IMG/VR virus record: IMGVR_UViG_3300005546_000001 | Location: 32,001 to 96,000 of that record | Source: a virus | Taxonomy: Duplodnaviria; Caudoviricetes | Reading direction: 5' to 3' (one strand) | DNA length: 64,000 bases | Part shown: positions 13,693 to 23,692 of the stretch, one piece after another | Numbering within the stretch: the stretch's first letter is position 1 | How the letters are laid out: each line of letters opens with the position of its first letter | Notes under the pieces: model-generated | Seen by the model: only the letters and a program-made list of their open reading frames with translations | The model's database searches: none | What the model was told of the DNA's origin: nothing | Program-made: the position numbers and the translations under genes

Positions 13693-14406
13693 ATGAATAA
13701 AGATGGAACACCTTCGGTGCTTTTCTTCGACATAGAAACTGCTGGTCCAGCTTCAATGACGGCTGATCTGGCAATTGTTATTTGCTTCGGCTATAAATGG
13801 CAGGGTGAGAAGCATTCTCATTGCTTGACAATTGATGAGAAATCTCTTAGAAAATTTGACGACAGCAAACTCCTAAAAGAAGCGTGTAAAATTTTTGAAG
13901 AAGCCGATTTAATTGTTGCACATTACGGCTCGGTATTTGATCGCCGTTTTATTCAAGGCCGCTTATTAATCAATAATTTACCGCCAATCCCACAGACTAA
14001 AATGAGGGATACTTGTTTCATGGCACGAAGTATCGCCAATTTTAGTCGTAATCGACTTGCGTACCTTTGCAAAATTCTGAATCTCGGTCATGCTAAGCTA
14101 GACAATAACTGGCCCGCAGCTTGGTTCTCCGTACTTCGCGGAGATATGGGAGCCCTTAAAAAGATGGCTATTTATTGTAAAGGCGATGTTCTAGCTCTCG
14201 AAGATCTTTATAATCGACTGAAAGCCTTTGATAGTCCCCATCCAAGAATGGTTATCGACCGAACAAAGTGCGGTCTTTGCGGCGGCGAAATCGAATACCG
14301 TGGTTTTTCATTTGTCGGACACCTCAGATACCGGCGCTTTGTATGTAAAAACCCTAAATGTCGCAAATGGGATAGAGAGAGAACAGCGATTAAATCCAAG
14401 AAATAA
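13693..14406 (+). CDS. RNase H-like DEDD 3'-5' exonuclease with C-terminal Zn ribbon
   Basis: FDIET, HYGSVFD, YCKGDV; CGLCG...CKNPKC. Confidence 0.85.
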   Translation: MNKDGTPSVLFFDIETAGPASMTADLAIVICFGYKWQGEKHSHCLTIDEKSLRKFDDSKLLKEACKIFEEADLIVAHYGSVFDRRFIQGRLLINNLPPIPQTKMRDTCFMARSIANFSRNRLAYLCKILNLGHAKLDNNWPAAWFSVLRGDMGALKKMAIYCKGDVLALEDLYNRLKAFDSPHPRMVIDRTKCGLCGGEIEYRGFSFVGHLRYRRFVCKNPKCRKWDRERTAIKSKK

Positions 14407-14457
14407 GCATCTTAGGGGCATACATGAAGGATATTTAACGCTATTTTTAGATTTCTC

Positions 14458-14486
14458 TTGACAAAAATCAAGGAATCTACTAAAAT
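14458..14486 (+). promoter_or_regulatory. Promoter of the tRNA/ncRNA operon
   Basis: TTGACA, 17 bp, TAAAAT, 9 bp upstream of the first tRNA. Confidence 0.85.
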
Positions 14487-14495
14487 AGCAGAGTT

Positions 14496-14582
14496 GCCAA
14501 CTTCGGGTAGCGGCGATCCCACGAGATTGTAAACCTCGCATTCTTCGGAGTCTCGGTGGTTCGAGTCCACCAGTTGGCACCA
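14496..14582 (+). tRNA. trnY: tRNA-Tyr(GTA), CCA encoded
   Basis: GCCAACT/AGTTGGC acceptor, loop TTGTAAA, long variable arm. Confidence 0.9.
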
Positions 14583-14586
14583 TTTT

Positions 14587-14658
14587 GGCAGAGTTCGTTA
14601 ATTGGTAAGCGGCTGATCTCCAAAATCAGTGCTGAAAGTTCGACCCTTTCCTCTGTCG
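14587..14658 (+). tRNA. trnW: tRNA-Trp(CCA)
   Basis: CTGAT-CTCCAAA-ATCAG, G73. Confidence 0.9.
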
Positions 14659-14729
14659 TAGTAGACCGCTGCAACGCGCCAACCAGAGCGTAGCGACTCG
14701 GCTAGTTACTGAGTCGAATCTGGTAAACT

Positions 14730-14817
14730 GGAAGCGAACCGGCTGGATCAGGGGAGAGTTTGCTAAACTCTTGGGGCGCTAGACGTGCCCTTGTGCGTTC
14801 GAGTCGCACCGTTTCCG
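14730..14817 (+). tRNA. trnS: tRNA-Ser(GCT)
   Basis: Loop TTGCTAA, long variable arm, G73. Confidence 0.9.
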
Positions 14818-14820
14818 CTT

Positions 14821-14903
14821 GGAGAATTTGGCATAGGCACGCCGCACGGTCCTGAAAACCGCAGGGGCTTACACCCCGGTAAGTTCGACTCTTACATTCT
14901 CCG
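14821..14903 (+). tRNA. trnS: tRNA-Ser(TGA), C33
   Basis: Loop CCTGAAA, long variable arm, G73. Confidence 0.85.
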
Positions 14904-14909
14904 CTTTTT

Positions 14910-14982
14910 GGCCCCGTGGTGAAACTGGATATCACAAAACGCTTCGAACGTTTAGTTGAGGAATCGTACTCTTCCGGGGTTA
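14910..14982 (+). tRNA. trnR: tRNA-Arg(TCG)
   Basis: AAACG-CTTCGAA-CGTTT; atypical T loop ATCGTAC. Confidence 0.8.
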
Positions 14983-14993
14983 TTGGAGTAATT

Positions 14994-15164
14994 ATGGAAG
15001 ATACAGATAAAGTGCCCGAATTCAAATTCGGAGTATTCAACTCTATGTTTAGATACGGGCTAGTAAAAAAGTTCTATGAAAAAGAAGCCGCTATTAAATA
15101 TGCGGATTACCTCAGTCACGGCGGACAATATTTCGTTGAACGAGTTGACTGGATAATGCCTTAG
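14994..15164 (+). CDS. Small hypothetical protein within the tRNA array
   Basis: GGAG RBS, ATG at 14994; the longer ORF-track start overlaps a tRNA. Confidence 0.6.
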   Translation: MEDTDKVPEFKFGVFNSMFRYGLVKKFYEKEAAIKYADYLSHGGQYFVERVDWIMP

Positions 15165-15170
15165 TTTTAT

Positions 15171-15255
15171 GCGAGCGTAGACAAATTGGCAAAGTCGGCA
15201 GGCTTAGACCCTGTTTTGCGAAAGCATCCTGGAGGTTCAACTCCTCTCGCTCGTA
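15171..15255 (+). tRNA. trnL: tRNA-Leu(TAG)
   Basis: Loop CTTAGAC, long variable arm, A73. Confidence 0.9.
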
Positions 15256-15259
15256 CCTT

Positions 15260-15332
15260 GCTGGTGTGGTGTAATTGGTAAACGCAGCGGCCTCAAACGT
15301 CGCTTATGGCTGTTCGAATCAGCTCACCAGCA
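15260..15332 (+). tRNA. trnL: tRNA with CAA anticodon (Leu), no variable arm
   Basis: GCGGC-CTCAAAC-GTCGC, variable loop TTAT only. Confidence 0.8.
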
Positions 15333-15406
15333 TTTTCAGTGGATGTGGGGCCTCCTGCATCGGCGCCCTTGCACACCGAGGCGCTTTTAATTTCGGGTGC
15401 TATTTA

Positions 15407-15478
15407 TCGCGCATAGCCAAGGGGAAAGGCGTGAGTCTGCAAAACTCTGATACATCGGTTCGATTCCGATTGCGCGAT
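15407..15478 (+). tRNA. trnC: tRNA-Cys(GCA)
   Basis: Loop CTGCAAA, U73. Confidence 0.9.
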
Positions 15479-15483
15479 CTTAA

Positions 15484-15560
15484 TGCGGGCGATAGCGCCA
15501 TTGTGCTAACTGCGCTCATAACGCAGATAAGGCGGGGTGAGACTCCCCGGCCCGCTACCA
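15484..15560 (+). tRNA. trnM: tRNA-Met(CAT), initiator-like, CCA encoded
   Basis: T1:T72 mismatch, loop CTCATAA, T loop TGAGACT. Confidence 0.8.
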
Positions 15561-15670
15561 TTTGAAACGCCAAGCGGCCACATGAAATTGGTATACCTCA
15601 ATTAAGGAGAACGGGTAAGAATGACCGACGCGCCGCCAGCGCGAGTACTGGCGACCTTGGCGCGGTTTTT

Positions 15671-15744
15671 GCCAGCGTGATGTAATTGGCACGCATTTAC
15701 CGCTTAAAACGGTGATTTTGGGGGTTCGAGTCCCTCCGCTGGCA
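15671..15744 (+). tRNA. trnL: tRNA with TAA anticodon (Leu), no variable arm
   Basis: TACCG-CTTAAAA-CGGTG, variable loop ATTTT. Confidence 0.8.
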
Positions 15745-15828
15745 TTCTTTGGTGCGAAGCTATGCTATGAATATTGCCATAGAGCGCAAACCTCCATTGG
15801 ATGTTAGGCGCTCGCACTGAGGGGACAT

Positions 15829-15900
15829 GGCGTCGAATGCAAATGGCTAGCAGCAAGTCCTTCAAACTTGTACTAGAGAGTTCAATTCTCTCCGGCGCTG
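15829..15900 (+). tRNA. trnE: tRNA-Glu(TTC), C33
   Basis: CAAGT-CCTTCAA-ACTTG, G73. Confidence 0.75.
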
Positions 15901-15977
15901 CTATTCCGCCTGACTATTTCGATGGCAGGCTGCGGGAGTACACTACAGAAGGAATTCTGAAAGAACTCCCTGCTTAT

Positions 15978-16050
15978 GGCGACTGTAGTGTAGTGGAAAC
16001 ATGGAAAGCTGTGAACTTTTCGTCAGTCCGTTCAAATCGGCTCAGTCGCC
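15978..16050 (+). tRNA. trnH: tRNA-His(GTG)
   Basis: G-1:C73, loop CTGTGAA. Confidence 0.9.
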
Positions 16051-16056
16051 CTTTAT

Positions 16057-16130
16057 TCTGGCGTCTTCTAAAGCAAGAACCATCGCTCTGAACGATGAGA
16101 ATCTCGGTTCGATTCCGTGCGCCAGTGCCA
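16057..16130 (+). tRNA. trnQ: tRNA-Gln(CTG), CCA encoded
   Basis: CATCG-CTCTGAA-CGATG. Confidence 0.85.
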
Positions 16131-16144
16131 ACTAATTTAGTTTT

Positions 16145-16217
16145 GCCGATCTAGTGTAATTGGCTGCACGCCCTCCTGATTAGAGGGAAGCTCAGGGTTC
16201 AAGTCCTTGGATCGGTA
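16145..16217 (+). tRNA. trnI: tRNA-Ile(GAT)
   Basis: CCCTC-CTGATTA-GAGGG (T37). Confidence 0.85.
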
Positions 16218-16221
16218 CTTA

Positions 16222-16326
16222 GGGAGTTTATCTCCCGACGAAGAGCCGGGGTCGCTGGTTCAACTCCAGTAAAGGGGACCATTTTATCCCCTGCTAGTTT
16301 AGCGTAAAACACCGGCTATGATTTTT
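16222..16326 (+). ncRNA. YrlA-type Y RNA / circularly permuted tRNA mimic
   Basis: Order is GACGAAG, AGCCGG, T arm, AAAGGGGA-CCA, loop, TCCCCTGC, D arm, CCGGCT. Confidence 0.75.
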
Positions 16327-16397
16327 GGAGGCGTAGTGTAAAGGCCGCACGATTGGCTGTCTACCATTTAGAGCGAGTTCGAATCTCGTCGTCTCCG
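16327..16397 (+). tRNA. trnD: tRNA-Asp(GTC)
   Basis: Loop CTGTCTA, G73. Confidence 0.9.
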
Positions 16398-16400
16398 CCT

Positions 16401-16474
16401 GTTCTCGTAGCCAAATTGGATAAGGTGCCAGTCTTCTAAACTGGAGATTCCGAGTTCGAGTCTCGGCGGGAACA
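16401..16474 (+). tRNA. trnR: tRNA-Arg(TCT)
   Basis: CCAGT-CTTCTAA-ACTGG. Confidence 0.9.
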
Positions 16475-16476
16475 TT

Positions 16477-16800
16477 ATGAAAGTTCTTTTCACTACTATT
16501 TTAGTAGCCGTATCTTTTCTTTGTACCGGCTTTATTGGTGGATTTTCTAGTTATACAGCGACAGCGTACACCCTAAAAGGCCGTACGGCTTTTGGTTGCA
16601 AAGCACACTCTGGAATAATAGCTGCTGATCCGCGCCAGATTAAACTCGGTTCTACAGTTTATATCAGAGCCGGTAAATACTCCGGAGAATATGTCGTGCA
16701 TGACACTGGCGTAAAAGGCCGTAGAATCGACATGTGGCTCCCCAGCCGAGCAGAAGCCTTGCGCTTTGGCAAGAAATCTGTTACACTGAAAATATTATGA
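16477..16800 (+). CDS. 3D-domain (MltA-like) cell-wall hydrolase with signal peptide
   Basis: TATAYT, IAADP..I.LGS, HDTG, RIDMW. Confidence 0.85.
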   Translation: MKVLFTTILVAVSFLCTGFIGGFSSYTATAYTLKGRTAFGCKAHSGIIAADPRQIKLGSTVYIRAGKYSGEYVVHDTGVKGRRIDMWLPSRAEALRFGKKSVTLKIL

Positions 16801-17000
16801 AAACAATTTGGATATTAACAGCGCATTCTGAAAGTGGTGATGATTTTGGCCCATTAGCATTTTCTAAGAAACCAACAGAAGCAAAACTAAAGAAAATTGC
16901 TTTTGATTGGGATGGTGAAGAAACAGAAGATGGTCCTGGTGACTATGGTTCTTATGTTTATTTGGATCTAAGTGAGGTAGAAGTTGATAAAAAAAGTTAA
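16797..17000 (+). CDS. Hypothetical protein
   Basis: ATGA overlap, start MKTIW. Confidence 0.55.
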   Translation: MKTIWILTAHSESGDDFGPLAFSKKPTEAKLKKIAFDWDGEETEDGPGDYGSYVYLDLSEVEVDKKS

Positions 17001-17099
17001 ATTTGTTTATCCAGAAGCATCAGAGAATGTTTCAAACAGCCCGTTCTTTATTTCTATAATGCAAGAAATTGTTAAACGACAGCGCGAATGGGTGACTAG

Positions 17100-17172
17100 G
17101 AACTCGTAGCTCAATTGGCAGAGCATCACTCTCTTAAAGTGAGTTGTGCGGGATCATTGCCCGCCGAGTTCA
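17100..17172 (+). tRNA. trnK: tRNA-Lys(CTT)
   Basis: TCACT-CTCTTAA-AGTGA; T loop ATCATTG. Confidence 0.8.
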
Positions 17173-17177
17173 TTTCT

Positions 17178-17266
17178 GCTCCCTTGGTGTAGTGACAGCA
17201 CGCTTGCTTTATACGCAGGAAGCCCCAGATTAGGGCGTGGCAGAGGTTTAATTCCTCTAGGGAGTA
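17178..17266 (+). tRNA. trnI: tRNA-Ile(TAT) with long variable arm
   Basis: CTTGC-TTTATAC-GCAGG; variable arm GCCC-CAGATTA-GGGC. Confidence 0.8.
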
Positions 17267-17269
17267 CTC

Positions 17270-17342
17270 GGATCGAAGGCTCAATTGGCAGAGTACCGGA
17301 CTTTTAATCCGGGGGTTGTGAGTTCGACTCTCACTCGATCCA
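17270..17342 (+). tRNA. trnK: tRNA-Lys(TTT)
   Basis: CCGGA-CTTTTAA-TCCGG. Confidence 0.9.
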
Positions 17343-17346
17343 CTTT

Positions 17347-17418
17347 GTCGGCGTAATTTAATCGGTAAAATACATCCCCGGTACGGATGTTTCAAGAGTT
17401 CAAATCCCAGTACCGGCT
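17347..17418 (+). tRNA. trnT: tRNA-Thr(GGT), C33, degenerate T stem (possible pseudogene)
   Basis: CATCC-CCGGTAC-GGATG; T stem AAGAG/CCCAG pairs poorly. Confidence 0.6.
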
Positions 17419-17423
17419 TTTAT

Positions 17424-17496
17424 TGGCGTGTCGTTTAATAGGCAAGACGGCAGATTGTTAATCTGTTAAGTGCAGGTTCGAGTCCTGCCGCGCCAG
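17424..17496 (+). tRNA. trnN: tRNA-Asn(GTT)
   Basis: Loop TTGTTAA, G73. Confidence 0.9.
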
Positions 17497-17502
17497 CTTT
17501 AA

Positions 17503-17577
17503 CTGTGTGTAGCCTAGTCTGGTTCAGGCACTTGGTTTGGGGCCAAGGTCACGGGAGTTCAAATCTCTCCACACAGA
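17503..17577 (+). tRNA. trnP: tRNA-Pro(TGG) copy 1
   Basis: C1-G72, A73, loop TTTGGGG. Confidence 0.9.
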
Positions 17578-17582
17578 CTTTA

Positions 17583-17656
17583 CAGGGTGTGGTGTCAATT
17601 GGCTGGCGACCCGGCCTGGAACCGGGAATATGCAGGTTCGAGTCCTGTCACCCTGA
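17583..17656 (+). tRNA. trnP: tRNA-Pro(TGG) copy 2, C33/A37
   Basis: C1-G72, A73, CCCGG-CCTGGAA-CCGGG. Confidence 0.8.
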
Positions 17657-17659
17657 CTT

Positions 17660-18175
17660 ATGAAAACAACAATAGCAACTTTATTTGTCGCATTGTTTCT
17701 TGCTGTTCCAGTGTTTTCACAAAACCGCGAACGGCACATGGATAATCGAGGTGTGTCAGAACACCGCCAAGAGTGGTTACAAGAACGTGCTCGAAATAGA
17801 GAACGAGAATCTCGTGATCGGCCTGTTAGAGTAGTTCCAGTAGTTCCGGTACGTCCAGTTCAACCTCGTATTGAAGATCGCCGTGGCGAGCAGCATCGCG
17901 ATTGGGATCGACGTGAACGCCACGAGCGTCCTTCGGGACCAAGAGTAGTGATCGTACCACGCTTGACATTCAGATTTCCTTTCTTTTACAAGGGAGCAAG
18001 AATCTACAACGCCTACGACTACGGATTTCGTGACGGATTCTACAAGGGACGAGAAGACTTCAGATTCGGATTTCCGTGTGATCCCGAATTCGAATTCGAT
18101 TACAGGCATTCATACGATGATCGTTATCGAGCGGGATTTCTTGCTGGATACGACCGTGGATGCCGTTGGCGCTAG
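17660..18175 (+). CDS. Secreted Arg/Glu-rich protein with GF/GY helical repeats
   Basis: Signal peptide; YGFRDGFYKG...YRAGFLAGYDRG. Confidence 0.65.
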   Translation: MKTTIATLFVALFLAVPVFSQNRERHMDNRGVSEHRQEWLQERARNRERESRDRPVRVVPVVPVRPVQPRIEDRRGEQHRDWDRRERHERPSGPRVVIVPRLTFRFPFFYKGARIYNAYDYGFRDGFYKGREDFRFGFPCDPEFEFDYRHSYDDRYRAGFLAGYDRGCRWR

Positions 18176-18184
18176 GAGATTTTT

Positions 18185-18331
18185 ATGCTTTGGACGATTT
18201 TGATCGTGCTTTTAGTTCTATGGTTACTCGGTTTGATCGGTGGAGTCGGGGGTGGTTTAATCCACCTCCTGCTCGTTGTCGCGCTGATCGTTCTTTTAAT
18301 CCAGTTGATTACTGGCCGAAGAGTAGTTTAA
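18185..18331 (+). CDS. lmo0937-family small membrane protein (48 aa, not in ORF track)
   Basis: MLWTILIVLLVLWLLGLIGGVGGGLIHLLLVVALIVLLIQLITGRRVV; GGAG RBS. Confidence 0.8.
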   Translation: MLWTILIVLLVLWLLGLIGGVGGGLIHLLLVVALIVLLIQLITGRRVV

Positions 18332-18338
18332 ATTTTTA

Positions 18339-18415
18339 GGGCTCATAGCTTCAATTGGTAAAGCGACTGGCCTGCAACCAGTAGACTCTCGGTTCGAATC
18401 CGAGTGGGTCCACCA
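18339..18415 (+). tRNA. trnA: tRNA-Ala(TGC), C33, CCA encoded
   Basis: G3-T70, ACTGG-CCTGCAA-CCAGT. Confidence 0.9.
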
Positions 18416-18420
18416 TTTTT

Positions 18421-18493
18421 GCGGATATAATTCAAGAGGATAGAATCCAAGTTTCCTAAACTTGCTATCCGGGTCCGAGTCCCGGTATCCGCT
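18421..18493 (+). tRNA. trnR: tRNA-Arg(CCT)
   Basis: CAAGT-TTCCTAA-ACTTG. Confidence 0.85.
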
Positions 18494-18496
18494 TTT

Positions 18497-18571
18497 GTAC
18501 GCATAGCTGAGATGGATTAGCGGCAGTCTGAAGAACTGCAAAGGCCCGTTCGATTCGTGCTGCGTACACCA
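18497..18571 (+). tRNA. trnF: tRNA-Phe(GAA), CCA encoded
   Basis: GCAGT-CTGAAGA-ACTGC. Confidence 0.9.
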
Positions 18572-18591
18572 CATCATATAAAGGAAAACAA

Positions 18592-18834
18592 ATGCATTAC
18601 CGAAATGGTCGTGAAGCTCATAACGGAGACAAGGTAGTAAAATTAGAAGGTGGGAAGATTGTTAGTTTCGGAGTGCTGCACAGCGCCACTCCCGGCAACG
18701 ATTACTGCAATGGATATATAGCTGTAGTACAGTCCCCAACCGACTACGCTTGTATGGTAGACTGTCTCCATGTAGATGACGTAGCTGAGTTGCTAGCAGA
18801 AAAAGGGTTAGCAACCCGACCGGCTGGTAAGTAA
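18592..18834 (+). CDS. Hypothetical phage protein
   Basis: AAGGA RBS; MHYRNGREA...CLHVDD. Confidence 0.65.
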   Translation: MHYRNGREAHNGDKVVKLEGGKIVSFGVLHSATPGNDYCNGYIAVVQSPTDYACMVDCLHVDDVAELLAEKGLATRPAGK

Positions 18835-18837
18835 TTT

Positions 18838-18908
18838 TGCTCGGAAACCAAATGGATCGGTGATAGTCTTTGAAACTATTTTAGTTGGTTCGATTCCAAC
18901 CCGAGCGG
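18838..18908 (+). tRNA. trnQ: tRNA-Gln(TTG)
   Basis: ATAGT-CTTTGAA-ACTAT. Confidence 0.85.
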
Positions 18909-18912
18909 CTTT

Positions 18913-18985
18913 GTCGCGCTGATATAACTGGTTATTATTCCGGTCCTGTAAATCGGCCATCGGGGTTCGACTCCCCGGCGCGGCT
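18913..18985 (+). tRNA. trnT: tRNA-Thr(TGT), C33
   Basis: CCGGT-CCTGTAA-ATCGG, T73, short variable loop. Confidence 0.8.
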
Positions 18986-19001
18986 CTTAGGATTAAATTT
19001 T

Positions 19002-19145
19002 ATGCCATATAAAGTAAAAACCCCATCTGGTGTTTTAGCAGATGGAGAATGGGAACGAATCGAAGATATTCCAGAAAAAATACCAGATCGATTTGAATAC
19101 TACTTTGAAACTGCTGAAGCAGAAATTATATGGGTTGACGACTAA
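19002..19145 (+). CDS. Small acidic hypothetical protein
   Basis: AGGA upstream, start MPYKV. Confidence 0.5.
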   Translation: MPYKVKTPSGVLADGEWERIEDIPEKIPDRFEYYFETAEAEIIWVDD

Positions 19146-19152
19146 TTTAGTT

Positions 19153-19190
19153 GCCGTATTGATGTAGCTGGAAACACGGGAGTCTTCCAA
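19153..19190 (+). pseudogene. 5' half of tRNA-Gly(TCC)
   Basis: GCCGTAT-TG-D arm-GGAGT-CTTCCAA, then an abrupt A-rich break; no matching 3' half nearby. Confidence 0.7.
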
Positions 19191-19198
19191 AAATAAAA

Positions 19199-19687
19199 AT
19201 GTATAAACAAAGATTTTGTAATGATTGTGGCTCTAAAAGAGATAAAAGAAGCAAAAGCGAACTTTGCTTAATATGCTTTAGAGAAAAAGTTAAACGCGAG
19301 GCTAATAAATATCAACCCGGATTTATTTAAGGTGGAAGTCAGTGGGCAGATAAGGATGGTTTAACTCATTATCAAAAAAATAAATCTCAATATTCTGCAT
19401 TAGCTATGCTCTCGAAGAAGAGAAGAAAGATTATTCTCTATAGTATTATAAATGAATACAAAGCTGAACGAGGGTGCAAGGATTGTGGCAATAAATTTCC
19501 AGAATATCCACAAGTTTTAGATTTTGATCATTTAGATTCAAATAATAAAAAGGCAGCAATTTCATCAATGCTACAGTTTGGGAATTCTTTGCAGTTAATA
19601 ATAGACGAGATTGCTAAATGTGAGTTAGTTTGTGCAAATTGTCATAGAATAAGAACTTTTAAAAGAAGACATAAAATTAGTATTTAA
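19199..19687 (+). pseudogene. HNH homing endonuclease with in-frame TAA at codon 44
   Basis: ATG 19199, CxxC..CxxC, TAA 19328-30; the frame continues into ORF 19406 (CKDC, LDFDH, CANCH). Confidence 0.7.
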
Positions 19688-19689
19688 TT

Positions 19690-19762
19690 GTGAAAGTAGC
19701 TCAATTGGCAGAGCGCCAGTCTTCCAAACTGGATGTTGCGAGATCGTTGCTCGTCTTTCACA
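19690..19762 (+). tRNA. trnG: tRNA-Gly(TCC)
   Basis: CCAGT-CTTCCAA-ACTGG; T loop ATCGTTG; A73. Confidence 0.8.
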
Positions 19763-19766
19763 TTTC

Positions 19767-19838
19767 GCCAGATTCGACAAGCGGAAAGTCACTACGTTTA
19801 CACCGTAGCATGCGTGGGTCCGAATCCTACATCTGGCA
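19767..19838 (+). tRNA. trnV: tRNA-Val(TAC)
   Basis: CTACG-TTTACAC-CGTAG. Confidence 0.85.
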
Positions 19839-19839
19839 T

Positions 19840-19996
19840 TCTGTGCGGTATATCGAAAGTAGCCCCCGCTTTGTCTGGTAAGGTTGCAAACGAACCAGCG
19901 AAGTACTTGGCAATCGGCGCCTGAAGCAGAAGCATGGAATGCTGGCCAGCAAGAAATGCGGAGCAGGAGATTGGCGCAAATTCGGGATAGCACAGA
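19840..19996 (+). ncRNA. Structured RNA containing a tmRNA-tag-like reading frame
   Basis: Ends pair (TCTGTGC/GCACAGA); 19886-19924 reads ANEPAKYLAIGA*. Confidence 0.45.
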
Positions 19997-19999
19997 TTC

Positions 20000-20077
20000 G
20001 CTGGTGTAGTGTATAAAAATAGGATAACACAGCCTTCCCGTAAAGGGCAAATGGCGGTTCGAGTCCGCTCATCAGCT
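20000..20077 (+). tRNA. trnT: tRNA-Thr(CGT), C33, enlarged D loop
   Basis: GCCTT-CCCGTAA-AGGGC, T73. Confidence 0.8.
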
Positions 20078-23242: not shown

Positions 23243-23692
23243 TTACCTCGGCGCATATATTTCAATCCTTATATTTTCAAGCGGTGATAGTTTTTCCAGC
23301 ATTAGTGGCAGAACTTCTCCAAAGAAATCCAGTCCCCCGTTGCCACACCCAAGAGCCGGTATTGCTATCGAATCGATTTCTCCTTCTTTTATTACTCTAA
23401 CTAAATCATCCAACCCATCTTCAATCCATTCTATTTTTGAAGGATTTTTCCAATGAACTTTTGTTGGAAAAGAAATAACATAACGTGGCTCGAATAAATG
23501 CTCGCAAACGTACATCTTTCCCGGCTGTACTTGCCCAGCATCGCAAGCTATCTTATGTGCTTTAAAGCATTCTGGAAATCTTTTCTTGAACTCCAGCGCA
23601 ACTCCTTTACCCCAAGTCCCAACACAATTTACTGTGTTCACAAGAGCTTCACAATTACTAGAAAACAAATCGCCGTGTAAAACTTCAATCAT
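23243..23692 (-). CDS. Macrodomain ADP-ribose hydrolase (DarG/Poa1p-like)
   Basis: GDLF, NTVNCVG..GKGVALEFK, FPTK.HW, IAIPALGCGNGGL. Confidence 0.9.
   Translation of the reverse strand: MIEVLHGDLFSSNCEALVNTVNCVGTWGKGVALEFKKRFPECFKAHKIACDAGQVQPGKMYVCEHLFEPRYVISFPTKVHWKNPSKIEWIEDGLDDLVRVIKEGEIDSIAIPALGCGNGGLDFFGEVLPLMLEKLSPLENIRIEIYAPR

Follow-up and report, generated by a model that had tools for sequence, protein, structure and literature searches.

The question raised by this locus is why seven tRNA genes within one phage operon encode a C in place of U33, the near-universal residue just 5' of the anticodon, which forms the U-turn. The window examined here, i.e. the whole stretch of 64,000 nucleotides corresponding to bases 32001-96000 of the IMG/VR record IMGVR_UViG_3300005546_000001, is part of a complete phage genome (130,977 bp, 42% G+C) that has direct terminal repeats. 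In its tRNA operon the anticodon loop begins with C32-C33 in 7 of the 31 genes (22.6%), while the other 24 have T33, as determined by ARAGORN, Rfam/Infernal and reading by hand. The explanation that we favour, tentatively and with a probability of roughly 0.46, is that the seven genes specify working elongator tRNAs in which one pyrimidine has been exchanged for another at position 33 and the exchange is tolerated, and that the apparent association of C33 with a G at position 35 in this phage results from a preference for certain anticodon contexts together with chance. C33 recurs across phage tRNA sets, where it has seldom been described, and does not amount to a system peculiar to this phage.

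The seven C33 genes and their operon

The features concerned, with their positions in the window, are as follows.

14458 to 14486, + strand: sigma-70-type promoter, TTGACA-17 nt-TAAAAT, matching the consensus at 11 of 12 positions and the top site of the region
14496 to 20077, + strand: tRNA operon of about 31 genes for all 20 amino acids (ARAGORN, Rfam and hand reading)
14821 to 14904, + strand: tRNA-Ser(UGA), loop CCUGAAA; ARAGORN at default threshold; long variable arm and G73; scored at 42.6 bits by the Sec model, which is type-II-like
15829 to 15901, + strand: tRNA-Glu(UUC), loop CCUUCAA; ARAGORN at relaxed threshold only; the sole C33 tRNA without G35
17347 to 17418, + strand: tRNA-Thr(GGU), loop CCGGUAC; ARAGORN at relaxed threshold; 29.5 bits; three non-standard T-stem pairs
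17503 to 17578, + strand: tRNA-Pro(UGG) no. 1, canonical loop UUUGGGG with U33 and G37; 52.5 bits; twin of the C33 copy
17583 to 17657, + strand: tRNA-Pro(UGG) no. 2, loop CCUGGAA with C33, and A37 instead of the usual G37; ARAGORN at default threshold; 29.7 bits
18339 to 18415, + strand: tRNA-Ala(UGC), loop CCUGCAA; ARAGORN at default threshold; 58.5 bits; G3:U70, A73, CCA encoded
18913 to 18986, + strand: tRNA-Thr(UGU), loop CCUGUAA; ARAGORN at default threshold; 40.6 bits
20000 to 20077, + strand: tRNA-Thr(CGU), loop CCCGUAA; Rfam, 40.6 bits; loop read by hand; D loop of 14 nt

The preliminary description of this locus had reported C33 in these seven genes and T33 in the rest, and both statements hold: ARAGORN, Infernal and hand reading agree upon the seven, and all of the remaining 24 tRNAs, inclusive of tRNA-Pro(UGG) no. 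1 (tttgggg) and a Met-CAT-like gene, have T33. ARAGORN recovers 27 tRNAs by default and 29 once its threshold is relaxed; Rfam contributes tRNA-Thr(CGU), which ARAGORN misses because of the 14-nt D loop, and the CAT-type gene brings the total to about 31. The latter gene (15486-15560), a CAT-anticodon tRNA-like gene, encodes its CCA and has an odd T loop, TGAGACT; it is missed by ARAGORN and matches in Rfam only the Tymo_tRNA-like model (30.1 bits). For tRNA-Glu(UUC) there was no Rfam match at E <= 10; its stems contain 21 pairs, and its T loop reads TTCAATT. The Infernal alignment places a C at model position 33 in tRNA-Pro(UGG) no. 2 and tRNA-Thr(GGU). A shifted register of the loop, in which T34 would act as residue 33, was considered and rejected, as tRNA-Thr(GGU) and tRNA-Thr(CGU) have no T at that place and the stems fix the register.

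The C33 tRNAs fold as cloverleaves with four stems and an anticodon loop of 7 nt. T loops of the form G-TTCRAnT-C and the GG of the D loop are present in all seven of them. The identity elements agree with the anticodons, as had also been claimed earlier, viz. G3:U70 and A73 in the Ala tRNA, C1:G72 and A73 in tRNA-Pro(UGG) no. 2, and a long variable arm with G73 in the Ser tRNA. By ARAGORN the C33 tRNAs have 19-22 stem pairs compared with a mean of 21.7 in the T33 tRNAs, tRNA-Thr(GGU) being marginal, and there is no difference in stem pairing between the C33 and T33 tRNAs either in the window or in the array of the sister phage L010 described below (p = 0.19 and 0.26, respectively). Given its weak T stem, tRNA-Thr(GGU) may be impaired. 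The mean identity is 0.567 among the C33 tRNAs and 0.573 between C33 and T33 tRNAs, which bears out the view that the C33 genes represent independent changes and rules out that they are recent paralogs of one another. All three Thr isoacceptors carry C33, and for Thr, Ala and Ser-UCN there is no U33 alternative within the phage's own set.

The operon is confined to the + strand, with many of its tRNA genes merely 2-7 nt apart and a few small open reading frames (ORFs) in between, and the gap between the promoter and the first tRNA gene (Tyr) is 10 nt. Since just 2-5 nt separate the C33 genes from canonical neighbours and one strong promoter precedes the operon, they are co-transcribed with these neighbours. 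Whole-genome scans revealed no second tRNA cluster elsewhere in the phage genome. According to the explanation favoured here, the phage would carry its own full decoding set of transcribed, working elongator tRNAs, and the C33 members of this set are probably charged and used in decoding.

Frequency and turnover of C33 in phage tRNA arrays

The frequency of C33 in other phages was determined by scanning IMG/VR for CCNNNAA located 12-13 nt before three common T-arm sequences, with the CT version of the pattern as a control and the loci checked with ARAGORN. In loci picked by a T33 tRNA, which provide an unbiased phage baseline, C33 was counted in 25 of 643 tRNAs (3.9%), and its share climbs to 5.4% among arrays with at least 10 tRNAs and to 7.8% among those with at least 20. 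With 7 of 31, the window lies above the 3.9-5.9% taken as the baseline for phages (p = 3e-4 to 2e-3, binomial). When the identical C33 pattern was applied to 185,579 cellular genomes, most of the matches were ordinary tRNAs in a shifted register; true C33 versus shifted-register matches numbered 58 versus 25 in viral contigs and 16 versus 86 in cellular genomes (odds ratio 12.5, p = 3e-14). C33 is thus rare in ordinary cellular tRNA genes. The deviations at position 33 in the phage baseline comprise 25 cases of C, one of G and one of A; as the replacement is almost always C, a pyrimidine is therefore still required at this position.

U33 has been held invariant in elongator tRNAs, and a review of the subject lists as exceptions only the eukaryotic initiators and a Candida tRNA-Ser (PMC5041475); yet about one phage tRNA in 25 lacks U33, and in some arrays it is one in 4-5. 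Either the U-turn needs no uridine in many anticodon contexts, or phages profit from dropping U33. The eukaryotic initiator tRNA-Met is likewise a natural and functional C33 tRNA, but it is a single initiator species, whereas the C33 tRNAs of the window are elongators with seven anticodons. No paper describing C33 in phage tRNAs was found in the literature search, and the window contributes one further example of it, together with a context rule and controls.

The turnover of C33 can be followed in a sister phage (L010), a 69.6-kb Logan contig, whose exonuclease protein, encoded beside the tRNAs, is 89% identical and whose tRNA array of 30 genes is syntenic with that of the window. Relatives of the exonuclease number in the hundreds, but only two are close, viz. 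L010 and L013 (84%), and as the latter contig ends at the first tRNA, L010 is the sole close relative with a comparable array. With a profile of the exonuclease, 9 relatives in IMG/VR were found, as well as several contigs in Logan (identity 47-74%), these being phages of 40-70 kb with 0-1 tRNA; a single-protein search of IMG/VR yielded no close relatives, and the exact tRNA patterns were not found in IMG/VR, although JGI metagenomes gave one 3-kb contig with two tRNAs. In L010, C33 is present in Leu-UAG, Glu-CUC, Ala-UGC, Gln-UUG, Val-UAC and Thr-CGU, whereas Ser-UGA, Thr-GGU, Thr-UGU and Pro-UGG have T33. The two arrays thus share C33 in three isoacceptors, Ala-UGC, Thr-CGU and Glu (UUC in the window, CUC in L010), an overlap that by a hypergeometric estimate (p of about 0.11) is not clearly above chance. 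The Glu-CUC tRNA of L010, which is syntenic to Glu-UUC of the window, scores 56.8 bits, and the best-scoring of all L010 tRNAs is the C33 tRNA Val-UAC (68.8 bits).

At the fourfold-degenerate sites of the exonuclease gene, whose protein was 87% identical in this comparison, the window phage and L010 show 30% identity, i.e. these sites are saturated, and judging from this the two phages are old relatives. Their orthologous tRNAs are 55-87% identical with compensated changes in the stems; the Ser-UGA orthologs, for example, are 80% identical and differ at position 33, with a stem change that is compensated. As the tRNA orthologs differ by compensated stem changes despite the saturation of neutral sites, their structure is therefore under selection. 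Further, a second and unrelated syntenic family of IMG/VR arrays (L019, L023, L063 and L200), with the order Cys, Arg, Arg, Tyr, His, Val, Arg, Val, Asp, Asn, Met, Glu, Glu..., has a C33 set that differs in each of its members. The presence of different C33 sets in arrays that are syntenic supports a turnover of C33, and position 33 would behave as Y33, flipping between U and C among the isoacceptors of related phages. In L200 there are four C33 tRNAs, all with G35.

Anticodon context and the favoured explanation

The preliminary description had linked C33 with G35, and for this phage the link stands: six of the seven C33 tRNAs fall among its seven G35 tRNAs (hypergeometric p = 6e-5). However, the rule proposed from it, based upon recognition of U33-N-G35, fails elsewhere, as C33 occurs in just 2 of the 6 G35 tRNAs of L010 and the rule does not hold in a sample of 303 non-identical arrays, comprising 265 C33 and 2384 T33 tRNAs. 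The associations seen in this sample are as follows.

G35 with C33: odds ratio 1.48, p = 0.013
R35 (purine) with C33: odds ratio 1.48, p = 0.003
Y36 (pyrimidine) with C33: odds ratio 2.27, p = 3e-9
R35 and Y36 together with C33: odds ratio 1.96, p = 1e-6
Y35 and R36 together with C33: odds ratio 0.32, p = 6e-9

C33 is found with every middle anticodon base in the IMG/VR phage tRNAs, and it is commonest in Val tRNAs (NAC) and least common in those for Phe/Leu (NAA), His/Gln (NUG) and Arg (NCG). Neither C32 nor A38 is commoner beside C33 than beside T33, and C33 has no distinctive flanking motif. Within the 53 arrays with at least two C33 tRNAs, no grouping of the C33 members by N35, N36 or N34 is seen (weighted p = 0.32 for N35); a hint in a smaller sample, from which the window was excluded, that the C33 tRNAs of an array share N35 (p = 0.03-0.06) vanished with the 53 arrays. 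The union of the two sister arrays had also suggested that C33 marks the family-box tRNAs with a cmo5U-type U34, the set considered being Ser-UGA, Pro-UGG, Ala-UGC, Thr-UGU, Val-UAC and Leu-UAG, but this was rejected on the IMG/VR data (odds ratio 1.47, p = 0.18). Hence the G35 rule is not general, and until the G35 pattern of this window is seen again it offers no basis to build on.

The bias that is directly observed in the 303 arrays matches the table of contacts given by Grosjean and Westhof (PMC5041475). In that work the 2'-OH of residue 33 makes a stronger contact to a purine 35, through N7, than to a pyrimidine 35, through C5, while the O2 of the residue touches C5 when base 36 is a pyrimidine; a change from U to C at position 33 keeps both the 2'-OH and the O2 contacts, whereas the bond from N3-H to phosphate 36 is lost. 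C33 would thus persist best where the contacts of the U-turn need no uridine N3-H, viz. where the 2'-OH of residue 33 meets N7 of R35 and its O2 meets C5 of Y36. The context rule, by which C33 is favoured with R35 and Y36 and disfavoured with Y35 and R36, makes a specific prediction about structure. In this phage, the context preference and chance together could have produced what appears as a G35 rule.

On this explanation, the constraints on phage arrays would be looser than those on cellular tRNAs, or of another kind. Other invariant residues are relaxed in phage tRNAs as well, which supports a looser constraint on them: deviations in phage versus cellular tRNAs amount to 10.6% versus 1.6% at U8, 14.4% versus 2.2% at A21, 3.2% versus 0 at T54 and 3.0% versus 0 at A58. 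Based on these considerations, we infer that tolerance and not active selection is the cause of C33. Unusual residues of the T loop are also seen in the window, viz. in Lys-CUU (17100-17172, ATCATTG), Gly-UCC (19689-19763, ATCGTTG) and Arg-UCG (14909-14983, ATCGTAC). The A54 and T58 of Lys-CUU and Gly-UCC represent an apparent swap of the T54-A58 reverse-Hoogsteen pair, which is seen in Gly-UCC of L010 also (ATCGTGG); among IMG/VR phage tRNAs there are 10 cases of A54 and 11 of T58, about 2.5% each, and none in the cellular sample. At the near-universal pseudouridine site, C55 is found in Arg-CCU (18421-18493, TCCGAGT) and Val-UAC (19767-19838, TCCGAAT).

Several observations weigh against the interpretation of C33 as a merely tolerated change. 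First, the concentration of C33 in the G35 tRNAs of this phage remains nominally unlikely (p = 5e-4) even when the preference of C33 for particular anticodons, as seen in the 303 arrays, is weighted in. Second, C33 reaches 20-23% in this lineage, exceeding the mean for phages by a factor of 4-5, and therefore a lineage-specific factor is called for. Third, the C33 tRNAs of the window score lower on the tRNA model than the others (median 40.6 versus 50.6 bits, p = 0.01), and from these scores some of them may be partly impaired. Fourth, a canonical and a C33/A37 version of Pro-UGG are kept side by side, hinting at divided roles. Lastly, U33C stops the synthesis of t6A37 by E. coli TsaBCDE in vitro (PMC8887486), and C33 is an anti-determinant for the synthesis of this modification by both yeast KEOPS and E. 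coli TsaBCDE (PMC8887486, PMC5041475); if C33 were purely harmless, its depletion in U36 tRNAs would be predicted, contrary to the data, as C33 is common in these tRNAs (113 of 946 in the 303 arrays). The U36 tRNAs that normally bear t6A37 and yet have C33 include all three Thr tRNAs of the window, and the C33 tRNAs of phages with U36 may work without t6A37.

Alternative explanations and neighbouring features

The main alternative, possible although in our view less likely, is that C33 is kept as a stealth variant: the tRNA would be a poor substrate for enzymes of the host by which the anticodon loop is read or cut, or for its modification enzymes on whose products such toxins depend, and the phage could then keep translating while the tRNAs of its host are attacked. 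The roughly 12-fold enrichment of C33 in phages versus cells, the replacement of U almost exclusively by C, the C33 rates of 20-30% in some lineages, its occurrence in Ala-UGC, Thr-CGU and Glu of both sister arrays and the coexistence of canonical and variant Pro-UGG can all be read in this manner, and U33C abolishes not only t6A37 formation by E. coli TsaBCDE (PMC8887486) but also the activity of one archaeal TrmJ (PMC4105751). However, no enzyme is known that would be the target, the relaxation extends to other invariant positions, the overlap of the sister arrays is not above chance, and the C33 sets do not cluster within arrays by any anticodon base. Further, U33C gives no protection from gamma-toxin (PMC2275089) and has no effect on E. 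coli TrmJ (PMC4105751), and in the complete phage genome no RtcB or Rnl-type ligase was found, so that RNA repair genes that would indicate nuclease pressure are absent; a CCA-adding enzyme was not found either.

Two known systems bear upon this possibility. The tRNA-Val(GAC) and tRNA-Val(CAC) of the cluster C1 mycobacteriophages, for which the hypothesis of nuclease-insensitive phage tRNAs was put forward (van den Berg et al. 2023, PMC10264068), likewise belong to phage arrays and have loops unlike those of the host; these loops, TCGACAC and TCCACAC, are C33 loops and they are retained in 144 and 142 of 161 phages, respectively, or about 89% (supplement sequences of PMC10264068). However, that work does not mention position 33 and argues from known VapC cleavage sites in a known host; moreover, it is Val that is affected in the C1 phages, while the seven isoacceptors with C33 in the window phage do not include Val. 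In the case of phage T5, the functional variants of Lys(UUU), Thr(UGU) and Asn(GUU) stand against the PARIS nuclease AriB while host tRNAs are cut (PMC11464382, PMC12409363), and T5 tRNAs with loop or stem substitutions defeat defence nucleases (PMC12409363). Thr tRNAs are among the targets in that case. However, T5, which is the proven case, owes its resistance to the stem positions 39 and 41, and U33 is present in all 22 of its tRNAs (C33 in 0/22).

A decay of some or all of the C33 genes into pseudogenes carried along in the operon is improbable. The lower scores of the C33 tRNAs on the tRNA model point in this direction, as do the broken T stem of tRNA-Thr(GGU), which is the chief candidate, the failure of Rfam to detect tRNA-Glu(UUC) and the lack of G37 in tRNA-Pro(UGG) no. 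2. However, stem pairing overall is no worse, excellent C33 tRNAs exist, as seen from Ala in the window and Val in L010, and for Thr, Ala and Ser-UCN the phage has no U33 tRNA to fall back on. In addition, the stem changes are compensated at a divergence where neutral sites are saturated, and the changes at position 33 lead almost always to C. C33 in phage arrays should not be read during annotation as a sign of a pseudogene.

It is similarly improbable that C33 is a feature of these tRNAs in the lineage of the host and that the phage has copied its host. Cellular C33 tRNAs do exist, and half of the cellular C33 sample is concentrated in two actinobacterial chromosomal arrays, viz. L335, with C33 in 10 of 33 genes, and L337, with C33 in 5 of 14. 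These arrays, which are from an Actinomycetota metagenome-assembled genome (contig CAVRGA010000002.1) and from Trebonia kvetii (NZ_RPFW01000012.1), respectively, pack 33 and 14 genes into 8 kb; like the operon of the window they are dense, with one third of their 14-33 tRNA genes having C32-C33 loops, but they lie in cellular genomes and show no synteny with it. However, C33 is rare in ordinary cellular tRNAs, the cellular cases resemble accessory arrays and not core tRNA genes, and the differing C33 sets of the sister phages are incompatible with a fixed host template.

A more elaborate proposal is that C33 is kept deliberately, withholding marks such as t6A37 and hiding the loop, that it was installed on the NGN set of tRNAs, which read NCN codons, against a G35-directed host factor (e.g. 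a TreThr-type ADP-ribosyltransferase), and that a macrodomain acts as a second line of defence; as a whole we hold this chain of suppositions to be improbable too. Macrodomains take off ADP-ribose. A macrodomain gene (PF01661, 70.2 bits) is located at 23327-23641 on the - strand, about 3 kb past the tRNA operon, and its homolog in L010 is at 14042-14497 (- strand).

It is more improbable still that a nuclease or toxin of the host recognises U33-N34-G35 and that the phage has converted its NGN tRNAs to escape from it, which was one of the two causes put forward in the preliminary description. Besides the concentration of C33 in the G35 tRNAs after context weighting and the conversion of all three Thr isoacceptors, this proposal can draw on a known toxin that modifies G35/U36 of tRNA-Thr(GGU) (PMC13617354) and, speculatively, on the presence of the macrodomain in both the phage and its sister. 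However, the pattern is replicated neither in L010 nor in the 53 arrays, and in the window itself Pro-UGG no. 1 has G35 with U33 while Glu-UUC has C33 without G35.

The other cause then put forward, viz. post-transcriptional editing of C33 to U33 by a cytidine deaminase encoded by the phage or its host, is unsupported and hardly credible, as apart from the strong conservation of U33 elsewhere nothing speaks for it directly, C33 is spread over unrelated phages with many different hosts and over all anticodon contexts, with no distinctive flanking motif, and no report of C33-to-U33 editing was found in the literature searched. The absence of a deaminase, noted earlier for the window, extends to the whole 131-kb genome, in which no PF00383 protein was detected at E <= 1 and the only match to the motif H-x-E...PC-x-x-C is an ORF of a Ubl operon that lacks a deaminase domain and is not a credible deaminase. 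In Methanopyrus kandleri, CDAT8 reportedly edits C8 to U8, which is likewise a case of a genomic C at a near-invariant U in many tRNAs; however, that system needs a dedicated deaminase, and none is encoded by this phage.

Some features of the surroundings may be added. Replication genes of the phage are located near the tRNA array, and its DNA polymerase has a best cultured match, with just 26% identity, in Pseudanabaena phages. In L010, the segment 1768-1862, between Ile-GAU and the next tRNA, gives a weak but full-length match to the YrlA Y-RNA model (21.8 bits versus a threshold of 69), and the syntenic spacer of the window (16222-16326) has no Rfam match at E <= 10. A UAU-anticodon tRNA (50.4 bits) whose variable arm spans about 22 nt is present at 17178-17267 of the window, and the same slot in L010 (2830-2903) is occupied by a CAU tRNA of ordinary length.

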